The translations under genes and the position numbers were made by a program. A stretch of 64,000 bases of DNA from positions 256,001 to 320,000 of the forward strand of contig JAIPGM010000002.1 in the NCBI GenBank assembly GCA_021735655.1, in the 5' to 3' direction. This document shows positions 3,120 to 16,550 of the stretch, in pieces. Position 1 is the first letter of the stretch; each line of letters starts with the position of its first letter. The DNA is from Candidatus Omnitrophota bacterium. Its GTDB lineage: Bacteria > Omnitrophota > Gorgyraeia > Duberdicusellales > 4484-171. Under the pieces are notes generated by a model. The model had not been told where the DNA came from. It worked only from the letters and a program-made list of their open reading frames with translations, and searched no databases.

Positions 3120-4358
3120 TTAGGGCATCTTACGAATAGCTTCGACCCGTTTCAATACCGGCGGATGACTATAATCCAAAAATACCTTTAATCGATGCGG
3201 GCTTAAATTAGAAAGATTGTTTACAGTGAGCTTTTTAAGCGCCGAGATAAAGGCCTCCGGATTTTGATAGGTCCTTACCGCATAGCGATCAGCTTCATAT
3301 TCATGTTTTCGCGAAAGCAAATTACCGAATATTGAAAAAATAAAACTAATTGGTGTATAAAGGAAGCTAAAGAATATAAGCCCAGCGTAAACTGATATTT
3401 CATCCATTCTAAAAGCATTGAATAGCCCAGGATTTTTTATAAAAAATGAAAGCAGGTAAAACATCAGACCTTTAGTTAATGCTGAGAGTAAAAGACGTTT
3501 TATAATATGTTTCTTTTTATAGTGGCCAACTTCATGTGCTAAAACAGAAACAATTTCTTCAGTAGTGTGTTTTTGAATTAAAGTGTCAAATAAAGCAATC
3601 CGACGAGATTTGCCTAAACCAGTAAAAAAAGCGTTAGACTTACTTGACCGACGCGACCCATCAATTTTAAAAATACCCTTTATCTTGAACTTTTGCGAAT
3701 TAGCATAATCGCTAACCGCCTTTTTAAGCTCCCCATCTTCTAAGGGGGTAAATTTGTTAAAAAGCGGTAAAATTAACACCGGAGCAATAAAAATAAAAAA
3801 AGTACTTAAGAGAACCGTAGCCAACCAACACCAAAGCCAAGCTCCCTGATCGCTAAACTCGACAAAAAGACGTACAATTAAATAGAAAGCCGGACCGGCA
3901 ATAATTACCAACAATATCCAGTTTTTAATTAGATCAGTAATAAAAGTTTTTACGGTAGTTTTATTGAATCCATACTTCTCTTCAATAACAAAGGTCTGAT
4001 AAATAGAAAAAGGTATCTCAATAATTTGAAGTCCGAAAACAATAATTCCGGCAAAAATTAAACCGCTAAACTCAATATTTGAGCTCAAATCTCGGGAGAT
4101 TCGGTCAACTAAATTGAATCCTCCGCTTAGAATAAAAATGATAACAACTGTCGTAAAGACGGTTTTTTGAATAAGACTAAAGTAAGTATTTTCTTTAAGG
4201 TATTTTTGCGAACGACTATAGTCCTCAGGATTATAATAACCTTCAAATTCTGCAGGTAGACTAAAACCAACTGAGGAAATATTTAACATCTCTACGGTCA
4301 CCCGCAAGACATACTCGCCGATTAAAATAGCTAAAATAATAACTAAATAAGGATTCAT
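3120..4358 (-). CDS. M48 family zinc metallopeptidase (Ste24/HtpX-like), polytopic membrane protein
   Basis: A 412-aa ORF with multiple TM segments, an HEXXH motif (LAHEVGHYKKKH) and a downstream Glu (EYEADRYA). It sits immediately downstream of the GEMM-I riboswitch. Confidence 0.8.
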   Translation of the reverse strand: MNPYLVIILAILIGEYVLRVTVEMLNISSVGFSLPAEFEGYYNPEDYSRSQKYLKENTYFSLIQKTVFTTVVIIFILSGGFNLVDRISRDLSSNIEFSGLIFAGIIVFGLQIIEIPFSIYQTFVIEEKYGFNKTTVKTFITDLIKNWILLVIIAGPAFYLIVRLFVEFSDQGAWLWCWLATVLLSTFFIFIAPVLILPLFNKFTPLEDGELKKAVSDYANSQKFKIKGIFKIDGSRRSSKSNAFFTGLGKSRRIALFDTLIQKHTTEEIVSVLAHEVGHYKKKHIIKRLLLSALTKGLMFYLLSFFIKNPGLFNAFRMDEISVYAGLIFFSFLYTPISFIFSIFGNLLSRKHEYEADRYAVRTYQNPEAFISALKKLTVNNLSNLSPHRLKVFLDYSHPPVLKRVEAIRKMP

Positions 4359-4479
4359 AAAACTATTTATTTTTTGAAGTTGAAACTGACAAGATTAAAA
4401 AAACCGACAAGGGCTTCACGGTGTGTCTACCGGCAACTCAGCCACCATCATAGTCTAAGGCTCATACTCGCAAAGTTGG

Positions 4480-4595
4480 GGAGCGTTGCGTTTTAGGAGA
4501 GCTTGCGAATCATCTCGCCCAAGAACTATCTTAGGTCTGTCAGTTTTGCGCCCCTTACTTTCGTAAGGTTTGCCCTTATCGGCACCTTAATTATA
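4480..4595 (-). promoter_or_regulatory. c-di-GMP-I (GEMM) riboswitch in the leader of the M48 peptidase gene
   Basis: The minus-strand RNA reads GAUAAGGGCAAACCUUACGAAAGUAAGGGGCGCAAAACUGACAGACCUAAGAUAGUUCUUGGGCGAGAUGAUUCGCAAGCUCUCC. It matches the Vc2-type GEMM-I core GGCAAACC-(stem with GAAA tetraloop)-GGGACGCAAAGC-...-CCUAAAC... with two mismatches in the ACGCAAAGC box. It lies in the 290-nt gap between mscS and the M48 gene and is followed by a GC-rich segment and a U7 run at about 4393..4425. Confidence 0.7.
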
Positions 4596-4649
4596 CAATA
4601 TTTTTGGTGCTAATTTCAACCCAATATTCAGAATATATATACAATATCG

Positions 4650-5708
4650 TTACTTTGTCAGATGAACAGTCTGAGTAGGAAAAGCAAATTCAATCTTTTT
4701 CTTCTCAAATTCACCCTTAATGCCCAGGTTTATCTCTTGTTGAATATCCATATATTTATTATAATCACTGCTAAGCACGTAATAGACTACCTCAAAAATA
4801 AGATTAAACTCACCATAAGAAAAGAAATGAGCTCGATCCAAAGTGGCACCCTCAACACCTTCAATTATCTCCCCAATAATCTTAGGTATTTCTTTTAACT
4901 TAGAAAGAGATGTGTCATAAGTAGTACCCAGCTGAAACATCACTCTTCGTTTCTGCATTCGCTTATAATTACGTAAGCGAGAATCCGTCAAATCAGAGTT
5001 AGAAAAAACTAGCTGTTCGCCGCCTAAACTGCGAATTCGAGTAGTTTTAATTCCAATGTTTTCTACTGTTCCCAAAAGATCGCCAACAATAACAAAATCG
5101 CCAACTTCAAAGGGACGGTCAAAAATAATTGAAAAATAACTAAATAAATCCTTTAGAACTGCTTGGGCAGCCAAAGCAATGGCTACACCACCAATACCCA
5201 ACCCGGCAATAACCGTTGATATTTTAAAACCTAAGTTGTCTAAATAGAAAATAATAGCCAGGGCCCAAATAATAAACTTAGTAACCCTCAAAACACCCTC
5301 TAGACTATTCTTTAAAGTTTCACTGCGCCTAGACTTTCGCCAATAAACATCTAAACTATAGGTAATTATACGAATCAATAAACGGACCGTAAAAAAAGTT
5401 ATTAGCGCCATCACTAGAACGCCTAGGCCGCGATTAACCTGTTCACTTAAGGTCAAGGTTTTAAGACTTAAGTAGAAGGCCGCAAGGTAAAAAATCGGAA
5501 TAGCTATTTTCTCAATAATTTCAGCTAAGAAATCATCAATACTAGTAAGCGTCTTTGCAGCTAAACTTCTGAGTTTTTTTAAAATGATGAGCTCGAATAT
5601 CTTTATTACAACACAAGCTAACAGGAATGCACCAATATGAACAATATAATCCTGTAATGAGTTGCCAAGTATAATGTACTCTGAAAATTCTTGCATAGTT
5701 ACCCCCAA
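4650..5708 (-). CDS. Mechanosensitive ion channel, MscS family
   Basis: A 352-aa ORF with N-terminal TM helices and the MscS beta-domain signature (FDRPFEVGDFVIVGDLLGTVENIGIKTTRIRSLGGEQLVFSNSDL). Confidence 0.85.
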   Translation of the reverse strand: MGVTMQEFSEYIILGNSLQDYIVHIGAFLLACVVIKIFELIILKKLRSLAAKTLTSIDDFLAEIIEKIAIPIFYLAAFYLSLKTLTLSEQVNRGLGVLVMALITFFTVRLLIRIITYSLDVYWRKSRRSETLKNSLEGVLRVTKFIIWALAIIFYLDNLGFKISTVIAGLGIGGVAIALAAQAVLKDLFSYFSIIFDRPFEVGDFVIVGDLLGTVENIGIKTTRIRSLGGEQLVFSNSDLTDSRLRNYKRMQKRRVMFQLGTTYDTSLSKLKEIPKIIGEIIEGVEGATLDRAHFFSYGEFNLIFEVVYYVLSSDYNKYMDIQQEINLGIKGEFEKKKIEFAFPTQTVHLTK

Positions 5709-5727: not shown

Positions 5728-6921
5728 TTAATTTTCCGAAATCGAATACCGAACTTTAGATTTTTGTATTTCCAAAGTGCTAGCCAGTTCGGTTTCAGTT
5801 ACAAACCCGAGTTCTTTTAAAATTTCTCCAAGCATAATTCCTCTTTTCCAATGAATTAAAAGAGCTTCATCGAGCTGATTTTGAGAAATTGCCTTTCGTT
5901 CAATTAATATCTGACCTAAAGGTTTATCATTGGTTGTCTTTCGATGATAGATTTCCGGTGTTGCGTCTTTATTTGTTTTGGTGTCACGACGATCAACCAT
6001 AAATTTGCTCTCAGGGATAGTTTTGAGGTAACGCTTTATTTCGGTAACTTTTTCATTAAGCTGAATCATATTTTCGATACCAGAAGTGTACTCTCGATTG
6101 ACTACGGCAATCGAAATTGTCATCAAAGGTGTATTTGTTAATTTACGAGTTCGATCGCGATTAACCACAAAACCTTGGTTGCGATCTATTTCAGAGTAAT
6201 GAAAAGGAATAATCGTATCGAAACTTTTAATAAAATTGTGGCATATTTGTGCGTATTTATCCATGGTGCTGATAAAAACAAAATCATCTCCTCCAATATG
6301 ACCGATAAAATCATCAGAATTTCCGAATTTTTTTACCGCGTCAATTAACAAGTGAGTTGTATGAAGAATTACTCCGTCACCTTTACGGTAGCCATAGACA
6401 TCATTGAAAGATTTAAAATTATCAATATCTAAATAAGCAAATGAAAATGGTTTTCCAGTTTTAAACTTTTCATTTAAGGCATCCTCAAATATTTTAGCAC
6501 CAGGAAGACCAGTTAAGGAACTCGCATAAATACTGTGTTGGGCGCGTCTTGCAGCCATTTCAATTCGAATACGTAAATCAAGCGGGTCTGGTGGTTTTAT
6601 CAAATAATCATCGACTCCTTGCTTTAGACTTAATAATTGAGCGCGTAATTGCCGCTTATTGATTAAAGTTATGACCGGAGTAAAAGCAGTGGCAAAATTT
6701 TCTTTTAAAAGCCGACACATGGCTAATTGTTCTTTACGGGCTGATTGAATATCAATGACTATGACATCAGGGGAAATTCTTTTTATTTTTTCGATATCTT
6801 GCGGTTGAGTAAATTCACGTAGGAAAACTTCGTATCCCCAACCGTCAAAACAAAAGCGCAGAACCTCTTTTAATTGACTATCCGAAGAGATAATTAAAAT
6901 TTTATGTATAGTATCAATCAT
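5728..6921 (-). CDS. Response-regulator receiver - GGDEF (GGDDF variant) - MshEN/T2SSE_N-like c-di-GMP-binding domain protein
   Basis: The REC domain has the phospho-Asp context VIVIDIQ, T in PVITLI and K in DYLIKP. The GGDEF domain has LDIDNFKSFNDVYGYRKGDGVI and the signature GGDDF in place of GGDEF, and the RxxD I-site is replaced by NSDD. The C-terminal 50 aa, LGEILKELGFVTETELASTLEIQ, fit the MshEN c-di-GMP-binding motif LGxxLLxxGLLxxxxLxxxLxxQ almost exactly. Confidence 0.8.
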   Translation of the reverse strand: MIDTIHKILIISSDSQLKEVLRFCFDGWGYEVFLREFTQPQDIEKIKRISPDVIVIDIQSARKEQLAMCRLLKENFATAFTPVITLINKRQLRAQLLSLKQGVDDYLIKPPDPLDLRIRIEMAARRAQHSIYASSLTGLPGAKIFEDALNEKFKTGKPFSFAYLDIDNFKSFNDVYGYRKGDGVILHTTHLLIDAVKKFGNSDDFIGHIGGDDFVFISTMDKYAQICHNFIKSFDTIIPFHYSEIDRNQGFVVNRDRTRKLTNTPLMTISIAVVNREYTSGIENMIQLNEKVTEIKRYLKTIPESKFMVDRRDTKTNKDATPEIYHRKTTNDKPLGQILIERKAISQNQLDEALLIHWKRGIMLGEILKELGFVTETELASTLEIQKSKVRYSISEN

Positions 6922-6929
6922 TTAAACTA

Positions 6930-9900
6930 TTATACCACTTTCTTCTGTTCCTCAATTATTTTTTGGGCTATTTCCTTTGGTACCTGGGTGTACTTTTTAA
7001 AATGCATTGAGCAACTTGCCCGGCCACTAGATAAAGACCTAAGATTGGTTACGTAACCAAACATTTCCGAAAGTGGAGCCTCAGCCGAAATTAGCTTTTG
7101 GTTACCTTTTGAATCCATACCTAAAATTTTCCCCCGACGCGCACAAAGATAACCAACAATACCACTAGTATGCTCTTCTGGAGTAAGTACTTCCAAGCTC
7201 ATGCAAGGCTCAAGAAGAACCGGACTCGCTTTTAAAAAAGCGTTTTTAAAGCAAGTTCTTGCAGCAATTTTAAACGCTAACTCTGAAGAATCAACTTCAT
7301 GGTATGAACCATCAACGAGCTTTACCTTAACATCGACCACCGGATAACCGGCATAAGAACCTTTTTTCATTGCTTCAATAATACCTTTCTCAACTGCCGG
7401 TATATAGTTTTTAGGTATTGCTCCACCTTTAATGCTATCTTTAAATTCAAAACCAGCAGCTTCTTCATTAGGAGAAAGCTCAATCGCTACGTGGCCGTAT
7501 TGGCCTCTGCCTCCGCTTTGCTTAGCATGTTTATACTCTTCGCTAGTAGACTGAAGGATTGTTTCTTTATAGGCAACTTTAGGCTGACCGGCCTGCGCTG
7601 AAACCTTAAATTCTTCCTTCAAACGTTCAACGATTATTTCAAGATGTAATTCTCCCATACCAGAAAGAATTGTTTCAGAGGTTTCCTCGTCGGTATGAGC
7701 GTTAAAAGTGGGGTCTTCTTCTGCTAGTTTAGCTAAACCCTTGGCCATCCTATCCTGATCGGAACGACTCTCCGGTTTTATGCTGATTGAAACGACTGGC
7801 TCAGAAAATTCAATTGACTCAAGTAATATTGGATTTTGAATGTCAGAGAGTGTATCGCCGGTTAAAGTGGAACTGAGACCGACAATTGCCGCAATATCAC
7901 CGGCAAACACTGCGTCAACATTTTCTCGTTGGTTAGCATGCATTCGAACAATTCTCCCGATACGCTCTTTTTTATTTTTAGTTGCATTTAAAACATAAGT
8001 TCCGGCCCTTAAGCATCCCGAATAGATTCGAGCATAGATCAATTTACCTACATGCTGGTCAGCTTGGACCTTAAAAGCAAGCGCTGAAAAAAATTCATCA
8101 TCTTGAGGCTTACGTTCCAAGCTTTTTTCTTTATCATCGGGGTCAGAACCAATAACTGGCGGAATTTCAGCCGGAGAAGGTAGATAGGCAACAACTGCAT
8201 CAAGCAAGTCTTGAACACCCTTATTTTTTAATGCTGACCCGCAAAAAACCGGAACAATCTTATTTGAAACTGTAGCTTTGCGCAAAGCCTCAGTCAGATC
8301 GTCTTTGCTGATTGACTCCTCTGACTGTAAGTATTTTTCCATTAATTTACCATCATAAGAGGCTACCCGATCAACCAAACTATGGCGGTATCTTTGAGCG
8401 ATTTCTTTATAGCTTTCATGAATATCTTCCGACCTAATATCTTTGCCTAAGGATTCGTCATTATAAAGATGCATTTTCATATTAATAAGATCAATTATGC
8501 CTTTAAAGTCACCTTCCTTACCGATCGGTATCTGTAAGGCAACTGGTTTAGCCCCAATAGTATTTTCGATCTCTTCTAAAACCTTAAAAAAATCAGCCCC
8601 GACCCGATCCATTTTATTTATAAAGGCTATCTTCGGTACATGATATTTATCCGATTGGCGCCATACGGTTTCAGTTTGAGACTCTACTCCTCCCACCGCA
8701 CAAAATACAGCAACTGCCCCATCTAGGACCCTTAACGATCTTTCAACTTCAGCGGTAAAATCAACGTGGCCGGGGGTATCAATAATAGTAATTTGGCAAT
8801 CTTTCCAACTACAAGTGGTTGCAGCTGAAGTTATAGTTATACCTCTTTCCTGTTCTTGTTTCATCCAATCCATCTGAGCTGCCCCGTCATGAACTTCGCC
8901 GATTTTGTGCGACCGGCCGGTATAGAAAAGAACTCTTTCAGTAAGAGTAGTTTTCCCAGCATCAATATGGGCCATAATCCCAATATTACGGATCTTGCCC
9001 AGTTCTATTTTTCTCTCCGGCAGTGGCTCCTCTACTTTTTTTACTGCTTCAGGCTTAGGCTCGGCTTGTATTTCTGGTTCTTGAGCCGATAGCTCCGGAG
9101 TCACTTCTTCACTTGCGGTTTCAGGTTGCCCTTGGGTCAAATCTTTAGTTTCACCTTCCTGCCCTTGGATTAAAGATTCGTCTTCCTTTAGCGATTCTTT
9201 ATCTGAAGGTAACTCTTCAAATTCCTTAGTTTCTGAAATAGGTTCACTTGGCTGCGCCTGAACTAACTCATTCTCAAGATTGGAAGATTCTTTTTGAGAA
9301 TCACCGTCCTCAATTAAAAGAATATCTGCTAACTCATCGTCCTTAATAACGCCGCTTCGTTTAATCTCGCGTAATTTATTAAGAATACGAATCCGCTCCT
9401 GATCAATTTTTTCGATATCTTTACCTTTTAGCTCCAACTCCTTAGATTTAATCTCTAACTCATTTTTTAATTCTTCACTTTGTTCTTCTAAAAGAGAGTA
9501 CTCTTCTTTAGATACCCATTCGCTTTGACGTTGTTTTTCTTTCATTTGAGCAACTTCAGCAGCATGTGCGACAGTTTCTTTAGATAGCTGGTGCATTCTT
9601 TGAGTCTGATCTTTTAGCTCACTTTCCAAAGAAATAATCTTATCTTTCAATTGATTGATATTGACTTCACGAATTTTGATTACTTCTTCAGCTTGATCAA
9701 GTTCTTTTTTAAACTGCACACTCCGGGAAAACTCTTTCTCTAAATCCTTTTCCTTAGTAATCAATTTAACTCTCAAAGCCTCATAGGGACCTTTTCCTTT
9801 TTTCAAAGTAAGCTGCTGACTATTAAGCCATTTTTTATTGCGGTTAATTTCCTCGCCCAATTCTTTAGCCTTGAGGCTAAGCTTTTGATGCTCATCTTGC

Positions 9901-10139
9901 AAGCTGAGATACTCAGCCTGAGTTTTTGTTAAGGCGACAATTTCATTTTTTAATTTTGTTAGTTCCCTTTTTGAAGATTTAAGGTTTTCTGACAAGGCAG
10001 AAATTTTTTGTTGTTGCAAGTCAGGCTTAAGGCCAAACTTTGTACCCAGAGTACCTTTTAAAACTGAATCATCTTCGTTGTTAACTAAATACAGTACTAG
10101 GGCAATCGATACTCCAATTACAACAAAAATTAAAGTCAT
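6930..10139 (-). CDS. Elongation factor G paralog with a ~390-aa N-terminal extension (TM anchor + long coiled coil + acidic linker)
   Basis: The 1069-aa ORF is continuous. Residues 1-22 form a TM helix ([21 protein letters not shown]). Residues ~40-260 form a K/E/L/Q heptad-rich coiled coil. Residues ~260-390 are an acidic E/S/P/Q-rich linker. From [27 protein letters not shown]...[25 protein letters not shown] onward it is a full-length EF-G (G domain through domain V, ~678 aa). The ATG at 10139 has a TGnTATAAT element 6 nt upstream and no SD. There is no in-frame stop between the extension and the EF-G body. Confidence 0.8.
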
Positions 10140-10145
10140 ATTAAA

Positions 10146-10204
10146 ATTATATCATATCTTTGCTATAAACAAAGACTTGAGAGTTAAAATATGCGTGCTA
10201 TAAT
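10146..10204. promoter_or_regulatory. Divergent promoters with -10 hexamers 6 nt from the ATGs (likely leaderless transcripts) for the EF-G fusion (-) and gatB/yqeY (+)
   Basis: Plus strand: TTGAGA(10177..10182), a 16-nt spacer, TATAAT(10199..10204), then 6 nt to the ATG at 10211. Minus strand: an extended -10 TGaTATAAT (TATAAT at 10151..10146), then 6 nt to the ATG at 10139. Neither gene has an SD. Confidence 0.35.
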
Positions 10205-10210
10205 AAGACC

Positions 10211-10657
10211 ATGTTAGAAGAAAAAATTTACCAGGATTTTATAGCTGCCCGCAAAGCCAAAGAAAAGGTGAGTTCTGACCTTCTCGGTATTATTCGCTCA
10301 GAACTCAAAAACAAGGCTATTGATTTAAAAAAAGATAAAGTTGATGATACGGAAGGTTTAACAGGACTCAAAAAACAGCAAAAACGCCTCCTTGATACTA
10401 AAAAAAGTATTGCTCAGTCACAAAGAAACGATTTGATTGCTAACACTAATCAAGAAATCGCCCTTTTAGAAAAATATCTGCCTAAACCGCTTGCTGATGA
10501 TGAATTGATAAAAATTATCGAAATAGCTATTTCGGATGCTAATGCTTCCTCAATTAAAGATATGGGTCGAGTAATGAAAGAAGTGATCGCTAAGGTTGGC
10601 GTTCGGGCTGATTCGAAAAAAGTTAGCCAAATAGTTAAAGAGAAACTTTCAGCTTAA
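10211..10657 (+). CDS. GatB/YqeY domain-containing protein
   Basis: A 148-aa ORF whose pattern of conserved residues (ARKAKEKVSSDLLGIIRSELKN...LEKYLPKPL...IKDMGRVMKEV) is typical of YqeY. Confidence 0.85.
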   Translation: MLEEKIYQDFIAARKAKEKVSSDLLGIIRSELKNKAIDLKKDKVDDTEGLTGLKKQQKRLLDTKKSIAQSQRNDLIANTNQEIALLEKYLPKPLADDELIKIIEIAISDANASSIKDMGRVMKEVIAKVGVRADSKKVSQIVKEKLSA

Positions 10658-10658
10658 T

Positions 10659-10982
10659 TTACCACTCTCCAGACCATTCAACATCGCCACTTTTGCCTAT
10701 GTCTTGAAAAAGCTCCTGAATGAATTCAATAATTGGATGAGTGTTTTTTTGAGCGGCCTTTTTAATTAGATTTTCTAAACGTTGAGGTTTTTCTATTTCC
10801 TCACTAACTTTATCAAAATTAAAATCAACTTCCTTGTCAAAATAGTTTTCTAGATCTTTCATGAAAATTTTTGAATTGTAGTTTTGACGATAATCAGCTA
10901 ACCTAGTTATTTTCTCAGCTCTTTGACGACGAAAAGATTCAAGTCTAGGATCCTCTTTTTCGGGCCTTTTTGAATCACTCAT
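10659..10982 (-). CDS. Hypothetical acidic protein
   Basis: A 107-aa ORF with no recognisable family. It is the last gene of the minus-strand operon. Confidence 0.4.
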   Translation of the reverse strand: MSDSKRPEKEDPRLESFRRQRAEKITRLADYRQNYNSKIFMKDLENYFDKEVDFNFDKVSEEIEKPQRLENLIKKAAQKNTHPIIEFIQELFQDIGKSGDVEWSGEW

Positions 10983-10990
10983 CTTAAATT

Positions 10991-11617
10991 TTAAGGGTTA
11001 ATCTTGTCACGATTCCAAGAATGCCAAGTCCGTTGTTGGTTTTCAATTTTCCAAGAACCATCTTTTTGCTTAACAACTGAAAGATAAATCCCGGCTCCAG
11101 TAGAGCGATTCCATTGATTAGCGACATGCAAGATAGCACGAGTTCTTTGACGGTTAAAACCTACCCGAGAAAGAGTTAAAATTCCTCCTGAACTAGGATA
11201 ACGGTCATAATAACTATCCCAGTGAGGATTATGATCAAAAATATAGTCAATTTCTTTTTGACTAATAATAATGTAATCGACCCGTTGATTTATAAAGCTC
11301 TCTAAAGAATAAGTCCTTACATTCTTGGCCTTAAAATCATTAATAATTTCATCTTCTAGGACAGGCATTTGCTGTCTAACGTAGTCTAGCTCAGTTTCAA
11401 TCGGTCTGCCTAATTGGTAAACGCTGGTATGATCTCGAATCAATATCTCTTTATTTTGCTCATTTGAATACCACTCGTCAACCACCGTTGAGTAAATTAA
11501 ATACTCATCCAGTTCAAAGCCATATTCATTAATACCTAAGGCATTACCTTGGGGTAAAATGATTAAGCAGACAATCACTATGAAGATATAGCGCTTGATT
11601 TCCATTAAAAATATCAC
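10991..11617 (-). CDS. Hypothetical secreted protein (N-terminal signal/TM)
   Basis: A 208-aa ORF with a hydrophobic N-terminus (YIFIVIVCLIILPQGNA). No family recognised. Confidence 0.4.
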   Translation of the reverse strand: MIFLMEIKRYIFIVIVCLIILPQGNALGINEYGFELDEYLIYSTVVDEWYSNEQNKEILIRDHTSVYQLGRPIETELDYVRQQMPVLEDEIINDFKAKNVRTYSLESFINQRVDYIIISQKEIDYIFDHNPHWDSYYDRYPSSGGILTLSRVGFNRQRTRAILHVANQWNRSTGAGIYLSVVKQKDGSWKIENQQRTWHSWNRDKINP

Positions 11618-11922: not shown

Positions 11923-12642
11923 CTATTCCTGTGCCGAATGAGTTGTATGTTTTTCAACAAAAAGTACTATTTTTTCTTGAATTTCAGGATTTATGTCATT
12001 AAATTCAAGCCCCATACCGGGAAAATCTTCCGGCTGTATCTCTTGGTCAGAAATCCAGACTATTTTAGCATCAACTTCAAGTGTACCTGGTTCAGGAATT
12101 AGGTGTATTCGAGTATGTAATAAATCACCCATTGAAAATAATTTTTGGGCAGCTACAAAAACTCCATCCCCGCTTAAATTGATAATTTTTCCGCTATAGA
12201 ACTCATCTTGACTAGAAAACTTCTGTCGGTATTCAATACTGGAGTTAAACGGTATTCGTTTAAAGCGTCGACGAAACTGACTGTCTGATGACTCAATGAT
12301 ATTCTTTTCTTCCTTAATCTTCTTTATCGCATGATCTTCGGTAACATGATATTCAAAGATTCGATCTAAACCTACGATTGAAAATAATTTCATTACATGG
12401 GAGGGAACATTGCATAGCTTCATTGCTCCCTGATGATTCGATACATTTTTATAAATTACGGCAATAAGTGATATGCCTACATAATCAATTAAATTAACAC
12501 CTTCAAAATTACAAATGACGTTCTTGGATTTATTACTAAGAACCCAGCCAACAGTTTCAACAAAATTAGAGGCATTGATATCAATATTCCCTTCTAGGTC
12601 CAAAATGGCCATGCCCTCTTTTTCACGAATATCTATCTTCAT
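11923..12642 (-). CDS. STAS (anti-sigma-factor antagonist, SpoIIAA-like) - PilZ fusion protein
   Basis: The N-terminal ~110 aa resemble an anti-anti-sigma STAS domain (MKIDIREKEGMAILDLEGNIDINASNFVETV...). The C-terminal domain carries both canonical PilZ c-di-GMP motifs, RRFKR (RxxxR) and NLSGDG (D/NxSxxG), about 25 aa apart. Confidence 0.7.
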   Translation of the reverse strand: MKIDIREKEGMAILDLEGNIDINASNFVETVGWVLSNKSKNVICNFEGVNLIDYVGISLIAVIYKNVSNHQGAMKLCNVPSHVMKLFSIVGLDRIFEYHVTEDHAIKKIKEEKNIIESSDSQFRRRFKRIPFNSSIEYRQKFSSQDEFYSGKIINLSGDGVFVAAQKLFSMGDLLHTRIHLIPEPGTLEVDAKIVWISDQEIQPEDFPGMGLEFNDINPEIQEKIVLFVEKHTTHSAQE

Positions 12643-14230: not shown

Positions 14231-16201
14231 CTAAAAGCTTACTTTACAACCGGCAAAGAAGTTTCTTTCTGGAGAAGGATAAAGTCCTCGCGTGGTACCG
14301 GTAAGATTAGTTGCAGCGTACTCACTGTAAAGTTCGTTAAATAAATTATTAACACCGGCAAAAAGCTCTAACTTTTTTCCGGTATAACTTAATTTTATAT
14401 TAGTTGTGTTGTAACTTTTTAACTTAGGGCTGATATTATTAAGATCATTAATTAAATAAACTTTATCTCGATAAAGATAATCAGCAAAAAATGAAAAGCG
14501 TTCAAAAAAATCATATTTTACCGAAGCTGTAAGCATAGCCTTAGGAACGAAAGGAACTTCCTTTCCAGCGTAAACACCGCCACGGAATTTCGCATCGATA
14601 AAGCGATAGCCGAGAGTAAACTTTGTATTGTCAAATGGGGTAAGGGTTGTAGTGAGATTCGCACCTTGACGACGAATTTTACTATAATTTTCGTTAGCGA
14701 ACGTCCCTGGGTTGTAGTATATTTCGTTATTAACATTCATTTGAAAATAATCCAAAGATGTGGTTAAAAAGTCAGTTAAACGCATATTGGCCCCCAAACT
14801 TATAGTTTTAGAACGTTGTGGTTTTAAATTTGTATTAATTGCTGCAGCCGGCCAAGTAACTAAGTATTCATCGGTCTTACCGACCCTCAAACCTCGCGAA
14901 AAATTAAGATAAATATTACTTTCGTTATCGATTTTATAGTTAAGTCCAGTTTCATACAAGCCTTCTCGAAAATTCAATCCATCATCAGTGCTTGTAGAAC
15001 CAAAATAATCAAAAGTAAACTTTTCTTTTTGCACCCTAGCCCCTAAATGCCCAGCAAGTTTTTCATTAAAGCTAATTTCATCCTGTAAAAACCAAGCTAG
15101 GCTCTGTCGATCAATGTCAGTAGCCGCGCTTGAGGTATCAGCTGATAAATCCGAACTATAAAATTCAAATCCGGCAATTAGCTCTTGTTGAATTCCTCTA
15201 GTATCAAAAGACAATAATAGTTGTGGCCGCGCTTGAAAATTAGTTATATGTTTGTCAGTAGACATGCTATAAGAAAGTAAATCCTCCAACTCATTTCGGT
15301 TACGATAAAATAAATCAACTGAAGCAATCAGCTCAGGTGAAAACTCGTTTTTAATAGTTAAGCCTAAAGTATTATCCTCTCGTTGATAGTTATTTAAAGG
15401 AGTTGTTGAGTCACGACGTGAAGTTCCAGCTAACCGTTCAGCTTCGGTTATATCATCTGGCAATCCATAGATATATTCGTGATGAGTCAAGTCAGCACTT
15501 ATCTCTAACTGTTCGGTAGGCCTAGAGTTTAGTTCTATTGAGCTGTATTTTGAGCGGTAATGACTATTTTGACGATAACCACTTGTTGAATGGTACTCAG
15601 AAAATGTGCGAAACGATAAAAGGTCTTCTCCACCTGAGGCTGAAATAGACTCTTTGGTCGAGCGGTAACTTCCGGCTTCAAAGTTAACTTCAACTGAAAG
15701 ATCCTTAGCTTGAGGATCTTTTGAAATAATATTAACTATTCCTCCGGCAGCACCCTCTCCATACAGGACAACTCCGCCACCCCGGATTACTTCTATTCGT
15801 TCAACATTTTTTAAGGGCAACTCAGTCCAGTTAACTCCGCTCATATCGATTTCATTAATTTTTCGACCATTCACTAAAACCAGCATGTTTGATGCAGCAT
15901 TATCACCAAAACCCATCATATCAACAGTTGTCTTAACGTTAGTTCCGTAATAATCGCTGACGTGTAACGACGGAACATTTCTTAAGAAATCAATTACTGT
16001 GCTTGATCCGCTAGCCTTGATATGTTTCTCGGTATATACTTTGGTCGCATAAGGAGTTTCAGAAATTGTTGTTTCTTCTACTCCGGCATAAGGAGTTACT
16101 ACTATTTGCTCTAAATCTATTTGTCCTTGCGCCAACAAAGGACTTAATGATCCAAATTGAATAGTCAAAAATAATATTAAAAATACAAAACACCTTTTCA
16201 T
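14231..16201 (-). CDS. TonB-dependent outer-membrane receptor (BtuB-like, downstream of a cobalamin riboswitch)
   Basis: A signal peptide (MKRCFVFLILFLTIQFGSLSPLLAQG) is followed by a plug domain and a 22-strand barrel that ends in a terminal Phe (GCKVSF). The start is taken as the ATG at 16201, which has a GGAGGGGG SD, rather than the upstream GTG used by the ORF track. Confidence 0.85.
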   Translation of the reverse strand: MKRCFVFLILFLTIQFGSLSPLLAQGQIDLEQIVVTPYAGVEETTISETPYATKVYTEKHIKASGSSTVIDFLRNVPSLHVSDYYGTNVKTTVDMMGFGDNAASNMLVLVNGRKINEIDMSGVNWTELPLKNVERIEVIRGGGVVLYGEGAAGGIVNIISKDPQAKDLSVEVNFEAGSYRSTKESISASGGEDLLSFRTFSEYHSTSGYRQNSHYRSKYSSIELNSRPTEQLEISADLTHHEYIYGLPDDITEAERLAGTSRRDSTTPLNNYQREDNTLGLTIKNEFSPELIASVDLFYRNRNELEDLLSYSMSTDKHITNFQARPQLLLSFDTRGIQQELIAGFEFYSSDLSADTSSAATDIDRQSLAWFLQDEISFNEKLAGHLGARVQKEKFTFDYFGSTSTDDGLNFREGLYETGLNYKIDNESNIYLNFSRGLRVGKTDEYLVTWPAAAINTNLKPQRSKTISLGANMRLTDFLTTSLDYFQMNVNNEIYYNPGTFANENYSKIRRQGANLTTTLTPFDNTKFTLGYRFIDAKFRGGVYAGKEVPFVPKAMLTASVKYDFFERFSFFADYLYRDKVYLINDLNNISPKLKSYNTTNIKLSYTGKKLELFAGVNNLFNELYSEYAATNLTGTTRGLYPSPERNFFAGCKVSF

Positions 16202-16227
16202 ACTACCCCCTCCTTTAAAACTAATCT

Positions 16228-16262
16228 TAAAATAAAAAAACCCTATACCTTCTGGTATAGGG
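16228..16262 (-). terminator. Rho-independent terminator / riboswitch expression-platform hairpin upstream of the TonB receptor
   Basis: Minus-strand RNA CCCUAUACC-AGAA-GGUAUAGGG is followed by UUUUUUUAUUUU. It forms a perfect 9-bp stem, lies between the cobalamin aptamer and the receptor start codon, and fits attenuation control. Confidence 0.55.
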
Positions 16263-16329
16263 TGCACCCTGATTTACTTGGCCCTAAAATAAAAAAATTC
16301 AGGTAATGTTTCCACGCAAAACCTAAACT

Positions 16330-16520
16330 TTGCTTCTTACGGCAGGTCTTCTGACTTCCCTACATCTTTTAGCTACCTTCCCACCTGCATTTTAAAACAG
16401 ATAGTGGTTTAAATCGCTAAAAGGGCCCTAAAATTATCTCTAGGGGTCGGGATCACAGCACCGGGAGTGTCTCCGATTCTCACGGAGTTCCCTATTAAGC
16501 TCCTTTTGAGCACCGTAAAA
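16330..16520 (-). promoter_or_regulatory. Cobalamin (AdoCbl) riboswitch
   Basis: The minus-strand RNA contains GGUGCU...UUAAUAGGGAACUCCGUGAGAAUCGGAG...CCCGGUGCUGUGA...ACCACUAUC...GCAGGUGGGAAGGUAGC. It matches the cobalamin aptamer consensus elements AGGGAA, GUGnnAAUC, CCCG-ACUGU-like, a B12-box-like CCACU and a distal GGGAAGG. It lies upstream of the TonB receptor (the classic btuB arrangement), with a consensus promoter upstream and a terminator downstream. Confidence 0.6.
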
Positions 16521-16550
16521 TTAGCTACTTTTATACAAAGAACATCTGTA

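Follow-up and report, generated by a model that had tools for sequence, protein, structure and literature searches.

Elongation factor G (EF-G) is normally regarded as a freely diffusing cytoplasmic factor, and the question raised by the locus described here is why an EF-G gene should begin with what looks like a membrane anchor. The gene lies on the minus strand, at positions 6930 to 10139, of a 64,000-nucleotide stretch of DNA (the window) from a Candidatus Omnitrophota bacterium (GenBank assembly GCA_021735655.1, contig JAIPGM010000002.1, positions 256,001 to 320,000), and consists of a single open reading frame (ORF) of 1069 amino acids with an ATG start and a stop codon. Its product, the long EF-G, carries a predicted transmembrane (TM) helix, a helical stalk and an acidic linker ahead of a complete EF-G, and sequence comparison identifies it as a new architectural variant of EF-G that is conserved phylum-wide. 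Neither our literature searches nor the Omnitrophota papers that were consulted mention an extended or membrane-anchored EF-G.

Architecture of the long EF-G

The gene and its parts are arranged in the window as follows:

6930..10139, minus strand: long EF-G paralog with predicted membrane anchor, whole gene (ORF listing, Pfam, homologs)
10074..10136, minus strand: N-terminal TM signal-anchor, residues 2-22, predicted N-out/C-in (hydropathy, charge pattern, AlphaFold2 helix at 2-20)
10020..10073, minus strand: juxtamembrane disordered lysine-rich spacer, residues 23-40 (predicted local distance difference test, pLDDT, below 50; composition)
9357..10019, minus strand: helical stalk, residues 41-261 (AlphaFold2, invariant residues, coding-type substitution)
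9015..9356, minus strand: acidic disordered linker containing S, T and P, residues 262-375, net charge about -24 (composition, AlphaFold)
6933..9014, minus strand: complete canonical EF-G, residues 376-1069 (Pfam, PDB match, TIGR00484)
8175-8996, minus strand: EF-G domains G and G' (Pfam)
7842-8090, minus strand: EF-G domain II (Pfam)
7587-7808, minus strand: EF-G domain III (Pfam)
7224-7583, minus strand: EF-G domain IV (Pfam)
6960-7220, minus strand: EF-G domain V (Pfam)

The stop-to-stop frame extends from 6933 to 10151 and leaves only four open codons 5' of the ATG, which is thus the first possible start. The original prediction, which had been made from the letters alone, described an EF-G paralog joined to a TM anchor, a helical region of about 220 residues and an acidic linker, in one unbroken frame of 1069 residues that was unlikely to be a chance merger. 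The frame was confirmed and recurs in the homologs described below, and Pfam, composition and AlphaFold agree on the parts.

By every sequence test the long protein belongs to the EF-G family. All Pfam domains are present at full length (GTP_EFTU at residues 382-655, EF-G_D2 at 684-766, EFG_III at 778-851, EFG_IV at 853-972 and EFG_C at 974-1060), which gives the five-domain G(+G')-II-III-IV-V layout, and the core is confidently modelled by AlphaFold2. It matches Thermus thermophilus EF-G (1EFG/1DAR) with 867 bits in the PDB search, at about 57% identity, and the TIGR00484 equivalog model (cut-off 659.4) scores the window protein at 1051.7 bits and the short paralog from locus L014, described below, at 1094.7 bits. 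The motifs G1 (AHIDAGKT), G3 (DTPGH) and G4 (NKMD) and the domain IV loops GGRGQYGH and SYHEVDSS can be read in the translation; the G motifs, the catalytic histidine and the domain IV tip loops are invariant among 49 long forms ([25 protein letters not shown] and SYHEVDSS), in keeping with the complete EF-G with intact G1 to G4 that had been predicted.

Other identities were rejected on their scores. The EF-G2 models NF009377 and NF058620 gave 513 and 506 bits against cut-offs of 890 and 1000, and T. thermophilus EF-G2 (1WDT) matched with 390 bits as compared with 867 for EF-G. The lepA model reached 182 bits (cut-off 534) and tet_protect, the model of tetracycline ribosomal protection proteins, 412.5 bits (cut-off 775). 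The Pfam result for the window protein contains no domain of the signal recognition particle (SRP) type, its GTPase being of the EF-Tu/EF-G class. Extra EF-G family genes in other bacteria often serve resistance or ribosome protection, and the long form might likewise be a Tet(M)-like protein or an antibiotic-insensitive spare EF-G; given that the tet_protect and EF-G2 models stay below cut-off, that the core is nearly indistinguishable from short EF-G and that a membrane anchor would be left unexplained, we consider this highly improbable.

Pfam finds no match in residues 1-380, a region that divides by composition into three parts. Residues 1-22 are 68% hydrophobic and hold no lysine or arginine, residues 46-262 contain 21% K/R and 19% D/E with no proline, and residues 263-380 contain 30% D/E, 13% S/T and 8% P, with a net charge of -24. 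Two AlphaFold runs, both of the monomer, predict a helix at residues 2-20, disorder at 21-40, helices at 41-114, 116-205 and 211-261, and again disorder at 262-369 ahead of the confidently folded EF-G; pLDDT is mostly above 90 for the stalk helices in the N-terminal model.

The features of the anchor are shared by its homologs. An uncharged N-terminal run of 21-34 residues, starting from residue 1 or 2 or thereabouts, is found in 50 of 50 long forms, and the Kyte-Doolittle maximum exceeds 2 in essentially all complete ones (1.73 in L057). Lysine or arginine precedes the TM helix in none of the 50 sequences, and the 25 residues that follow it contain 6.5 of them on average, a distribution that by the positive-inside rule points to an N-out/C-in topology. 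The anchor is accordingly classed as a predicted signal-anchor, with the bulk of the protein predicted to be cytoplasmic. A cleavable signal peptide was rejected, since there is no positive n-region and the hydrophobic run is too long.

The stalk helices are broken at KGKGP (around residue 115) and SEWVS (205-210), and family-specific motifs, namely NKKW(104)L, KEKxLExEFSKxV(129-141) and ESEW(208)VSKxxYxxL(217), flank both breaks. W104, V141, W208 and L217 are invariant in both alignments (A1 and A2), and the same holds for S206 in A2 and very nearly in A1. Structure searches with the helical region returned only generic coiled-coil matches; the term coiled coil of the original prediction is applied here to the long amphipathic, heptad-like helices and is not meant to imply an oligomeric supercoil. 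Between the window and locus L005, differences in this region occur at codon positions 1, 2 and 3 with frequencies of 0.34, 0.19 and 0.55, which indicates that it is translated and under purifying selection. The linker varies from about 43 to 209 residues (a crude measure) and is conserved in composition only, offering no conserved sequence that could be a cleavage site.

Homologs of the N-terminal module were sought in representative proteins and by structure searches, and none was found outside the family formed by the long EF-Gs and the module itself. When residues 1-381 served as a single-sequence query against 1.84 billion representative proteins, only 50 matches came back; the 18 that were inspected all contain the same module, three of them continuing into EF-G and most of the others stopping inside the linker, as an N-terminal piece of a long EF-G would. 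A profile search, in addition, recovered free-standing modules that are 42-49% identical to the N-terminal extensions of long forms. The first, P0141 (210 amino acids), lies complete in the interior of its contig, with glgP on one side and DUF6268/pgi on the other, in two assemblies (L087:3438-4070; L088:1594-2226), and P0286 (212 amino acids) is similar to it. The third, P0148 (311 amino acids; L089:5001-5936), ends after the acidic linker without an EF-G and stands exactly where one clade has its long EF-G (pheS-pheT-rarA-[x]-cyclophilin). The existence of these free-standing homologs indicates that the module is an evolutionary unit of its own.

Conservation and paralogy in Omnitrophota

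A search of 5.8 billion proteins returned, among its best 120 matches, mostly proteins of about 940-1083 amino acids with 51-77% identity, many of which cover 95-100% of the query; those that are named are "elongation factor G" of Candidatus Omnitrophica/Omnitrophota. Homologs with the same extension, which the original prediction had proposed to look for, are thus abundant: the architecture is present in more than 100 protein clusters (1000-1095 amino acids) and at 51 genomic loci, almost all labelled Omnitrophota, and on this comparison it is conserved across the ultra-small Omnitrophota. A scan of viral contigs produced no matches. The locus scan took one genome per species and returned 79 loci, whose ORFs were re-derived and fall into two classes. 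Long genes encode 997-1095 amino acids, with 314-412 residues (counted from the first ATG) ahead of AHIDAGKT, and every complete one opens directly with a hydrophobic helix; short genes encode 693-703 amino acids and begin M[17 protein letters not shown], as an ordinary EF-G does. Some taxon labels disagree with this distribution. L011 and L052 (JAIWAR01) are labelled "Methanosarcinales archaeon", L007, L009, L010, L013 and others "uncultured Planctomycetia" and L043 "Spirochaetes bacterium", and yet the loci are of Omnitrophota type, which suggests mis-binning or placeholder taxonomy of these metagenome-assembled genomes (MAGs).

The same comparison bears on whether the long gene is an artefact, either of an assembly or frame error that joined two genes or of a mis-annotated start, the true product being an ordinary EF-G initiated internally and the part ahead of it belonging to a different product. 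Public gene models might seem to speak for the latter. The NCBI model of the window protein (P0001) has 871 amino acids and starts at M199, at least two more long genes are recorded in shortened form, the one on the L014 chromosome with 797 (P0074) and the one on the 5603-bp contig that also carries L015 with 700 (P0068), and P0033 (696 amino acids) is possibly a third shortened long gene; an exact-sequence look-up of the 1069-residue product gave no match. Some homologs, moreover, have valine (the codon may be GTG) where the short form starts. However, no start codon is conserved ahead of the G domain, the window residue aligned to the short form's methionine lies in "PERK", the TM helix always begins at the first ATG after the upstream stop, and the helical region evolves as coding sequence. 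As for a joining error, the frame stays open across the linker at all 51 loci, which were assembled independently and differ greatly in linker length. The comparative data effectively refute the artefact, whose probability we regard as close to negligible, and the shorter NCBI models are annotation truncations that start at an arbitrary internal methionine or valine. Public annotation thereby shortens long EF-G genes and renders the membrane anchor invisible in databases.

Relatives of the window organism carry both classes. Long and short (about 698 amino acids) EF-G genes occur on separate contigs in five MAGs (CAZAYU01, CAZVQU01, CAYVYJ01, JAIWAR01 and JAUVUO01), four of which belong to the window's own sub-clade, and within about 10 kb of each other at five loci (L014, L023, L038, L053 and L058), the first of them on a complete 1.5-Mb chromosome. 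In "Ca. Susulua stagnicola" a long locus (L012) is accompanied by a short protein under a record of its own (P0259). Mean identity is 71% among long cores, 77% among short ones and 69% between the two classes, and the means against Thermus EF-G are 57.2% for long and 58.9% for short forms. A tree rooted with Thermus places 49 of the 51 long cores in a single clade, and the loci where both genes lie side by side branch near the base of that clade. Both the monophyly and the position of the adjacent pairs fit an origin, which we consider probable, by a single tandem duplication of the short gene followed by fusion to a membrane-anchored helical module.

The two long forms outside the clade, L003 and L013, represent one lineage, and their position is explained by recent gene conversion with their own short copy: L013:8915-12082 and L050:5076-7175, both from MAG CAZAYU01, are 100% identical in nucleotide sequence over approximately the first 270 core codons and about 65% identical thereafter. 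Milder traces are found in five genomes (L010/L024, L014, L023, L011/L052 and L009/L016), where identity at third positions reaches 0.73-0.9 within the first 130 or so codons, as against about 0.45 elsewhere. Since the paralogs exchange sequence, their G domains would appear to be functionally interchangeable. Only one residue systematically splits the long from the short cores (K1015 in long forms, Q in short ones, domain V). The G' subdomain, which contacts L7/L12 in factor recruitment, is under looser constraint in the long forms, with a pairwise identity of 0.56 among them and of 0.73 among short forms. Taken as a whole, the core data support a catalytically competent EF-G whose single systematic difference from the housekeeping copy is its presumed membrane leash. 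Shine-Dalgarno matches precede 29 of 31 short genes, mostly of the AGGAG type, and 21 of 50 long genes, mostly as weak 4-mers, as would suit a short copy that is strongly expressed for housekeeping and a long copy that is specialised and of lower abundance.

That the long gene is outside the str operon, as predicted, was confirmed: a motif scan of the window revealed no EF-Tu, S12 or S7, and a phmmer search of all ORFs at 83 loci with Escherichia coli queries revealed no S12, S7, S10 or EF-Tu near either class of EF-G. The canonical fusA expected beside rpsG and tuf elsewhere in these genomes was accordingly absent from the 83 loci, and three further short-form contexts were likewise unrelated to ribosomal genes. 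Some complete Omnitrophota chromosomes nevertheless carry S12-S7-EF-G-EF-Tu-S10 (2026 preprint), and it is possible that the short gene is kept in the str operon in some orders or that a third EF-G copy exists. Either way, in relatives the long form accompanies at least one EF-G of normal length. About 37 short-form loci (e.g., L001, L016, L019-L024 and L084-L086) from Omnitrophota and Auribacterota show a dispersed gene with varying neighbourhoods, usually with a strong Shine-Dalgarno site and never beside rpsL, rpsG or tuf.

Neighbourhood and expression

The genes and sites that surround the long EF-G in the window are the following:

10146..10154, minus strand: extended -10 element TGaTATAAT (read from sequence; putative role)
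5728..6921, minus strand: REC - partial GGDEF - MshE-type cyclic di-GMP (c-di-GMP)-binding protein (Pfam, NF053729)
4650..5708, minus strand: MscS-type mechanosensitive channel (Pfam)
4619..4590, minus strand: promoter-like site 5' of the riboswitch (consensus scan)
4429..4584, minus strand: c-di-GMP-I riboswitch (Rfam)
3120..4358, minus strand: Ste24/HtpX-type M48 membrane metalloprotease, 3' of the riboswitch (Pfam)
10211..10657, plus strand: YqeY-domain gene, divergent, kept in the window's clade (Pfam, locus comparison)

The REC/GGDEF/MshE-type gene begins 8 nucleotides past the EF-G stop, and no terminator-like site was found between the two. The original prediction had placed the EF-G at the head of an operon that extends through this gene, MscS and the riboswitch to the M48 peptidase. 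Its components were recovered (NF053729 at 55.6 bits, MscS by Pfam, the riboswitch by Rfam at 60.8 bits), whereas the peptidase probably forms a transcription unit of its own because a promoter-like site with an 11/12 consensus match lies directly upstream of the riboswitch; the likely units are EF-G-REC/GGDEF-MscS and then riboswitch-M48. Parts connected with c-di-GMP are dense within 9 kb, where a STAS-PilZ protein (11923-12642, minus strand) adds to the REC/GGDEF/MshE gene and the riboswitch.

A function of the long EF-G linked to c-di-GMP, which had also been suggested, is not a trait of the family. The window-type neighbourhood with its divergent YqeY is kept in the closest 10 or so loci only, another clade has the order pheS-pheT-rarA-long EF-G-cyclophilin, with a periplasmic cyclophilin and UvrD downstream, and no neighbour is common to long EF-Gs across the phylum. 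A phylum-wide functional link to c-di-GMP was rejected on these grounds. The same distribution speaks against a regulated reservoir, in which membrane-stored EF-G would be freed by cleavage of the linker, for example by the neighbouring M48 protease, upon envelope, osmotic or c-di-GMP signals. The linker is indeed long, disordered and exposed, a c-di-GMP response regulator, MscS and a riboswitch-controlled protease do follow the gene in the window's clade, and E. coli LepA/EF4 is reportedly stored at the membrane and freed under stress. Outside about 10 close relatives, however, the neighbours are unrelated, the linker lacks a conserved cleavage-site sequence, and related genomes already possess a normal soluble EF-G, and we therefore think a reservoir decidedly unlikely.

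Leaderless transcription, another suggestion of the original prediction, is plausible for the window's sub-lineage. The hexamer within TGaTATAAT ends 6 nucleotides ahead of the start codon, a Shine-Dalgarno site is lacking, and L005 is alike in these respects; the consensus scan found no -35 partner. It does not extend to the family, since a TANNNT box lies 4-9 nucleotides before the ATG in only 5 of 50 long-form genes.

Beyond YqeY, upstream of the EF-G, two minus-strand ORFs of 107 and 208 amino acids (10659-10982 and 10991-11617) have no Pfam or NCBIfam match and are found again next to long EF-Gs of the window's clade, at 13 and 4 loci, respectively. Further along, a cobalamin riboswitch (16324-16532, minus strand, 81.7 bits) lies directly 5' of a TonB-dependent receptor with Plug and beta-barrel domains (14231-16267, minus strand) that probably imports B12 in the manner of BtuB; the equivalent position in L003 is also taken by a TonB-dependent receptor.

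A possible role in membrane-localised translation

Canonical EF-G (FusA, EFG I; T. thermophilus, E. coli) has the same five-domain core with all G motifs, the catalytic histidine and the tip loops, and lacks the N-terminal extension of about 375 residues that the long form carries. It typically resides in rpsL-rpsG-fusA-tuf, genes that the long form is not beside, and the window's long form, unlike it, has no Shine-Dalgarno site. Duplicated EF-Gs with divided labour are found in Pseudomonas aeruginosa (EF-G1A/1B), Borrelia and "spd" (EFG1/EFG2) and mitochondria (EF-G1/EF-G2), where specialisation, e.g., in translocation versus recycling, is a matter of divergent cores. The Omnitrophota pair resembles these in having two genes per genome, one apparently for housekeeping and one specialised, and differs in that its cores are about 70% identical and still converting, the distinction being an added localisation module.

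Architectural likeness, and only that, can be found in FtsY, the SRP receptor, a membrane GTPase with an acidic A domain which has an N-terminal TM helix in some actinobacteria and no long helical stalk. FtsY is, and the long EF-G would be, a translation-linked GTPase held at the cytoplasmic face of the membrane by an N-terminal element and an acidic disordered region; the FtsY GTPase is an SRP54-type NG domain and that of the long EF-G is a translational one. LepA/EF4 is an EF-G paralog reported at the membrane, as a peripherally associated translational GTPase. It is without a TM segment and without EF-G domains IV and G', and its C-terminal domain is one of its own; the long EF-G has a predicted TM segment and all EF-G domains. 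An N-terminal TM helix is combined with a helical stalk in RNase Y, EzrA, ATP synthase subunit b and FtsL/PilN; no sequence relation or specific fold relation to them was detectable, and they carry no translation factor.

We propose that the long form has the full catalytic competence of an EF-G and is tethered at the cytoplasmic face of the membrane, where it serves membrane-bound ribosomes, and we give this proposal about an even chance of being correct. A role in localisation is favoured because the membrane leash is the sole systematic difference from the short copy and gene conversion keeps the G domain identical. The protein would span the inner membrane once, with its N-terminal helix in the membrane and the remainder in the cytoplasm, and the stalk of about 220 residues and the flexible acidic linker of about 110 residues would form a leash tens of nanometres long. 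Estimated from residue counts, the roughly 215 helical residues would span about 11-13 nm when folded back into a hairpin or a bundle of three helices and at most about 30 nm in an extended state, so that the tethered factor would sweep a shell amounting to a sizeable fraction of a cell radius of about 100 nm. Such a protein could provide a local pool of translocation and recycling activity for ribosomes engaged in co-translational insertion or secretion. Omnitrophota cells measure about 0.2 μm (PMC10066038), and the giant proteins of the phylum are mostly TM or signal-peptide proteins (preprint 10.64898/2026.06.07.730766) that associate with the cytoplasmic membrane (preprint 10.1101/2023.11.21.568195). 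In such small cells, giant membrane or secreted proteins would result in a large class of long-lived membrane-bound ribosomes, which are plausible clients of the tethered factor.

Several observations weigh against this proposal. The 64-kb window itself contains no second EF-G, the paralogy being seen in relatives; the neighbourhoods differ by clade, and genes for Sec, YidC or SRP are absent from them, so that they give no pointer to co-translational targeting; giant proteins are linked to the long form only by a correlation at the phylum level; and the module also occurs without EF-G, so that its function may be its own and the EF-G a recruited part. The last point can be developed into a different reading, in which the helical module is the functional core, for instance an organiser of a membrane complex, and the EF-G is a handle by which ribosomes are docked or parked for localised synthesis or hibernation rather than a turnover elongation factor. 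The module's own invariant motifs (W104, V141, W208 and L217) and its survival alone in P0141, P0286 and P0148 are what such a reading would lead one to expect, and eukaryotic ribosome receptors of the endoplasmic reticulum, such as p180/RRBP1, are likewise built from a TM anchor and a coiled coil. A mere docking handle, however, would have no need of strictly conserved catalytic residues in its GTPase or of a conserved domain IV tip, the G domain is still being kept canonical through conversion with the housekeeping gene, and in similarity to Thermus EF-G the long forms trail the short ones by only some 1.7 percentage points. We consider the handle reading possible but doubtful. Equally tentative is a stronger version of the tethered-factor proposal, namely a dedicated elongation branch in which an active anchored EF-G pool, possibly dimerised through the stalk, sustains the hours-long co-translational synthesis of giant membrane and secreted proteins, with the module as a hitherto unrecognised membrane organiser or ribosome receptor.

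If a tethered factor is indeed what the long form represents, an anchored but otherwise canonical copy, kept throughout the phylum alongside a normal EF-G, would show directly and in genetic terms that the location of elongation factors is under selection. Anchored and released versions of the protein would then offer a simple experimental handle on membrane-localised translation in bacteria, and the long EF-G may help to explain how ultra-small Omnitrophota manage extremely long membrane and secreted proteins.

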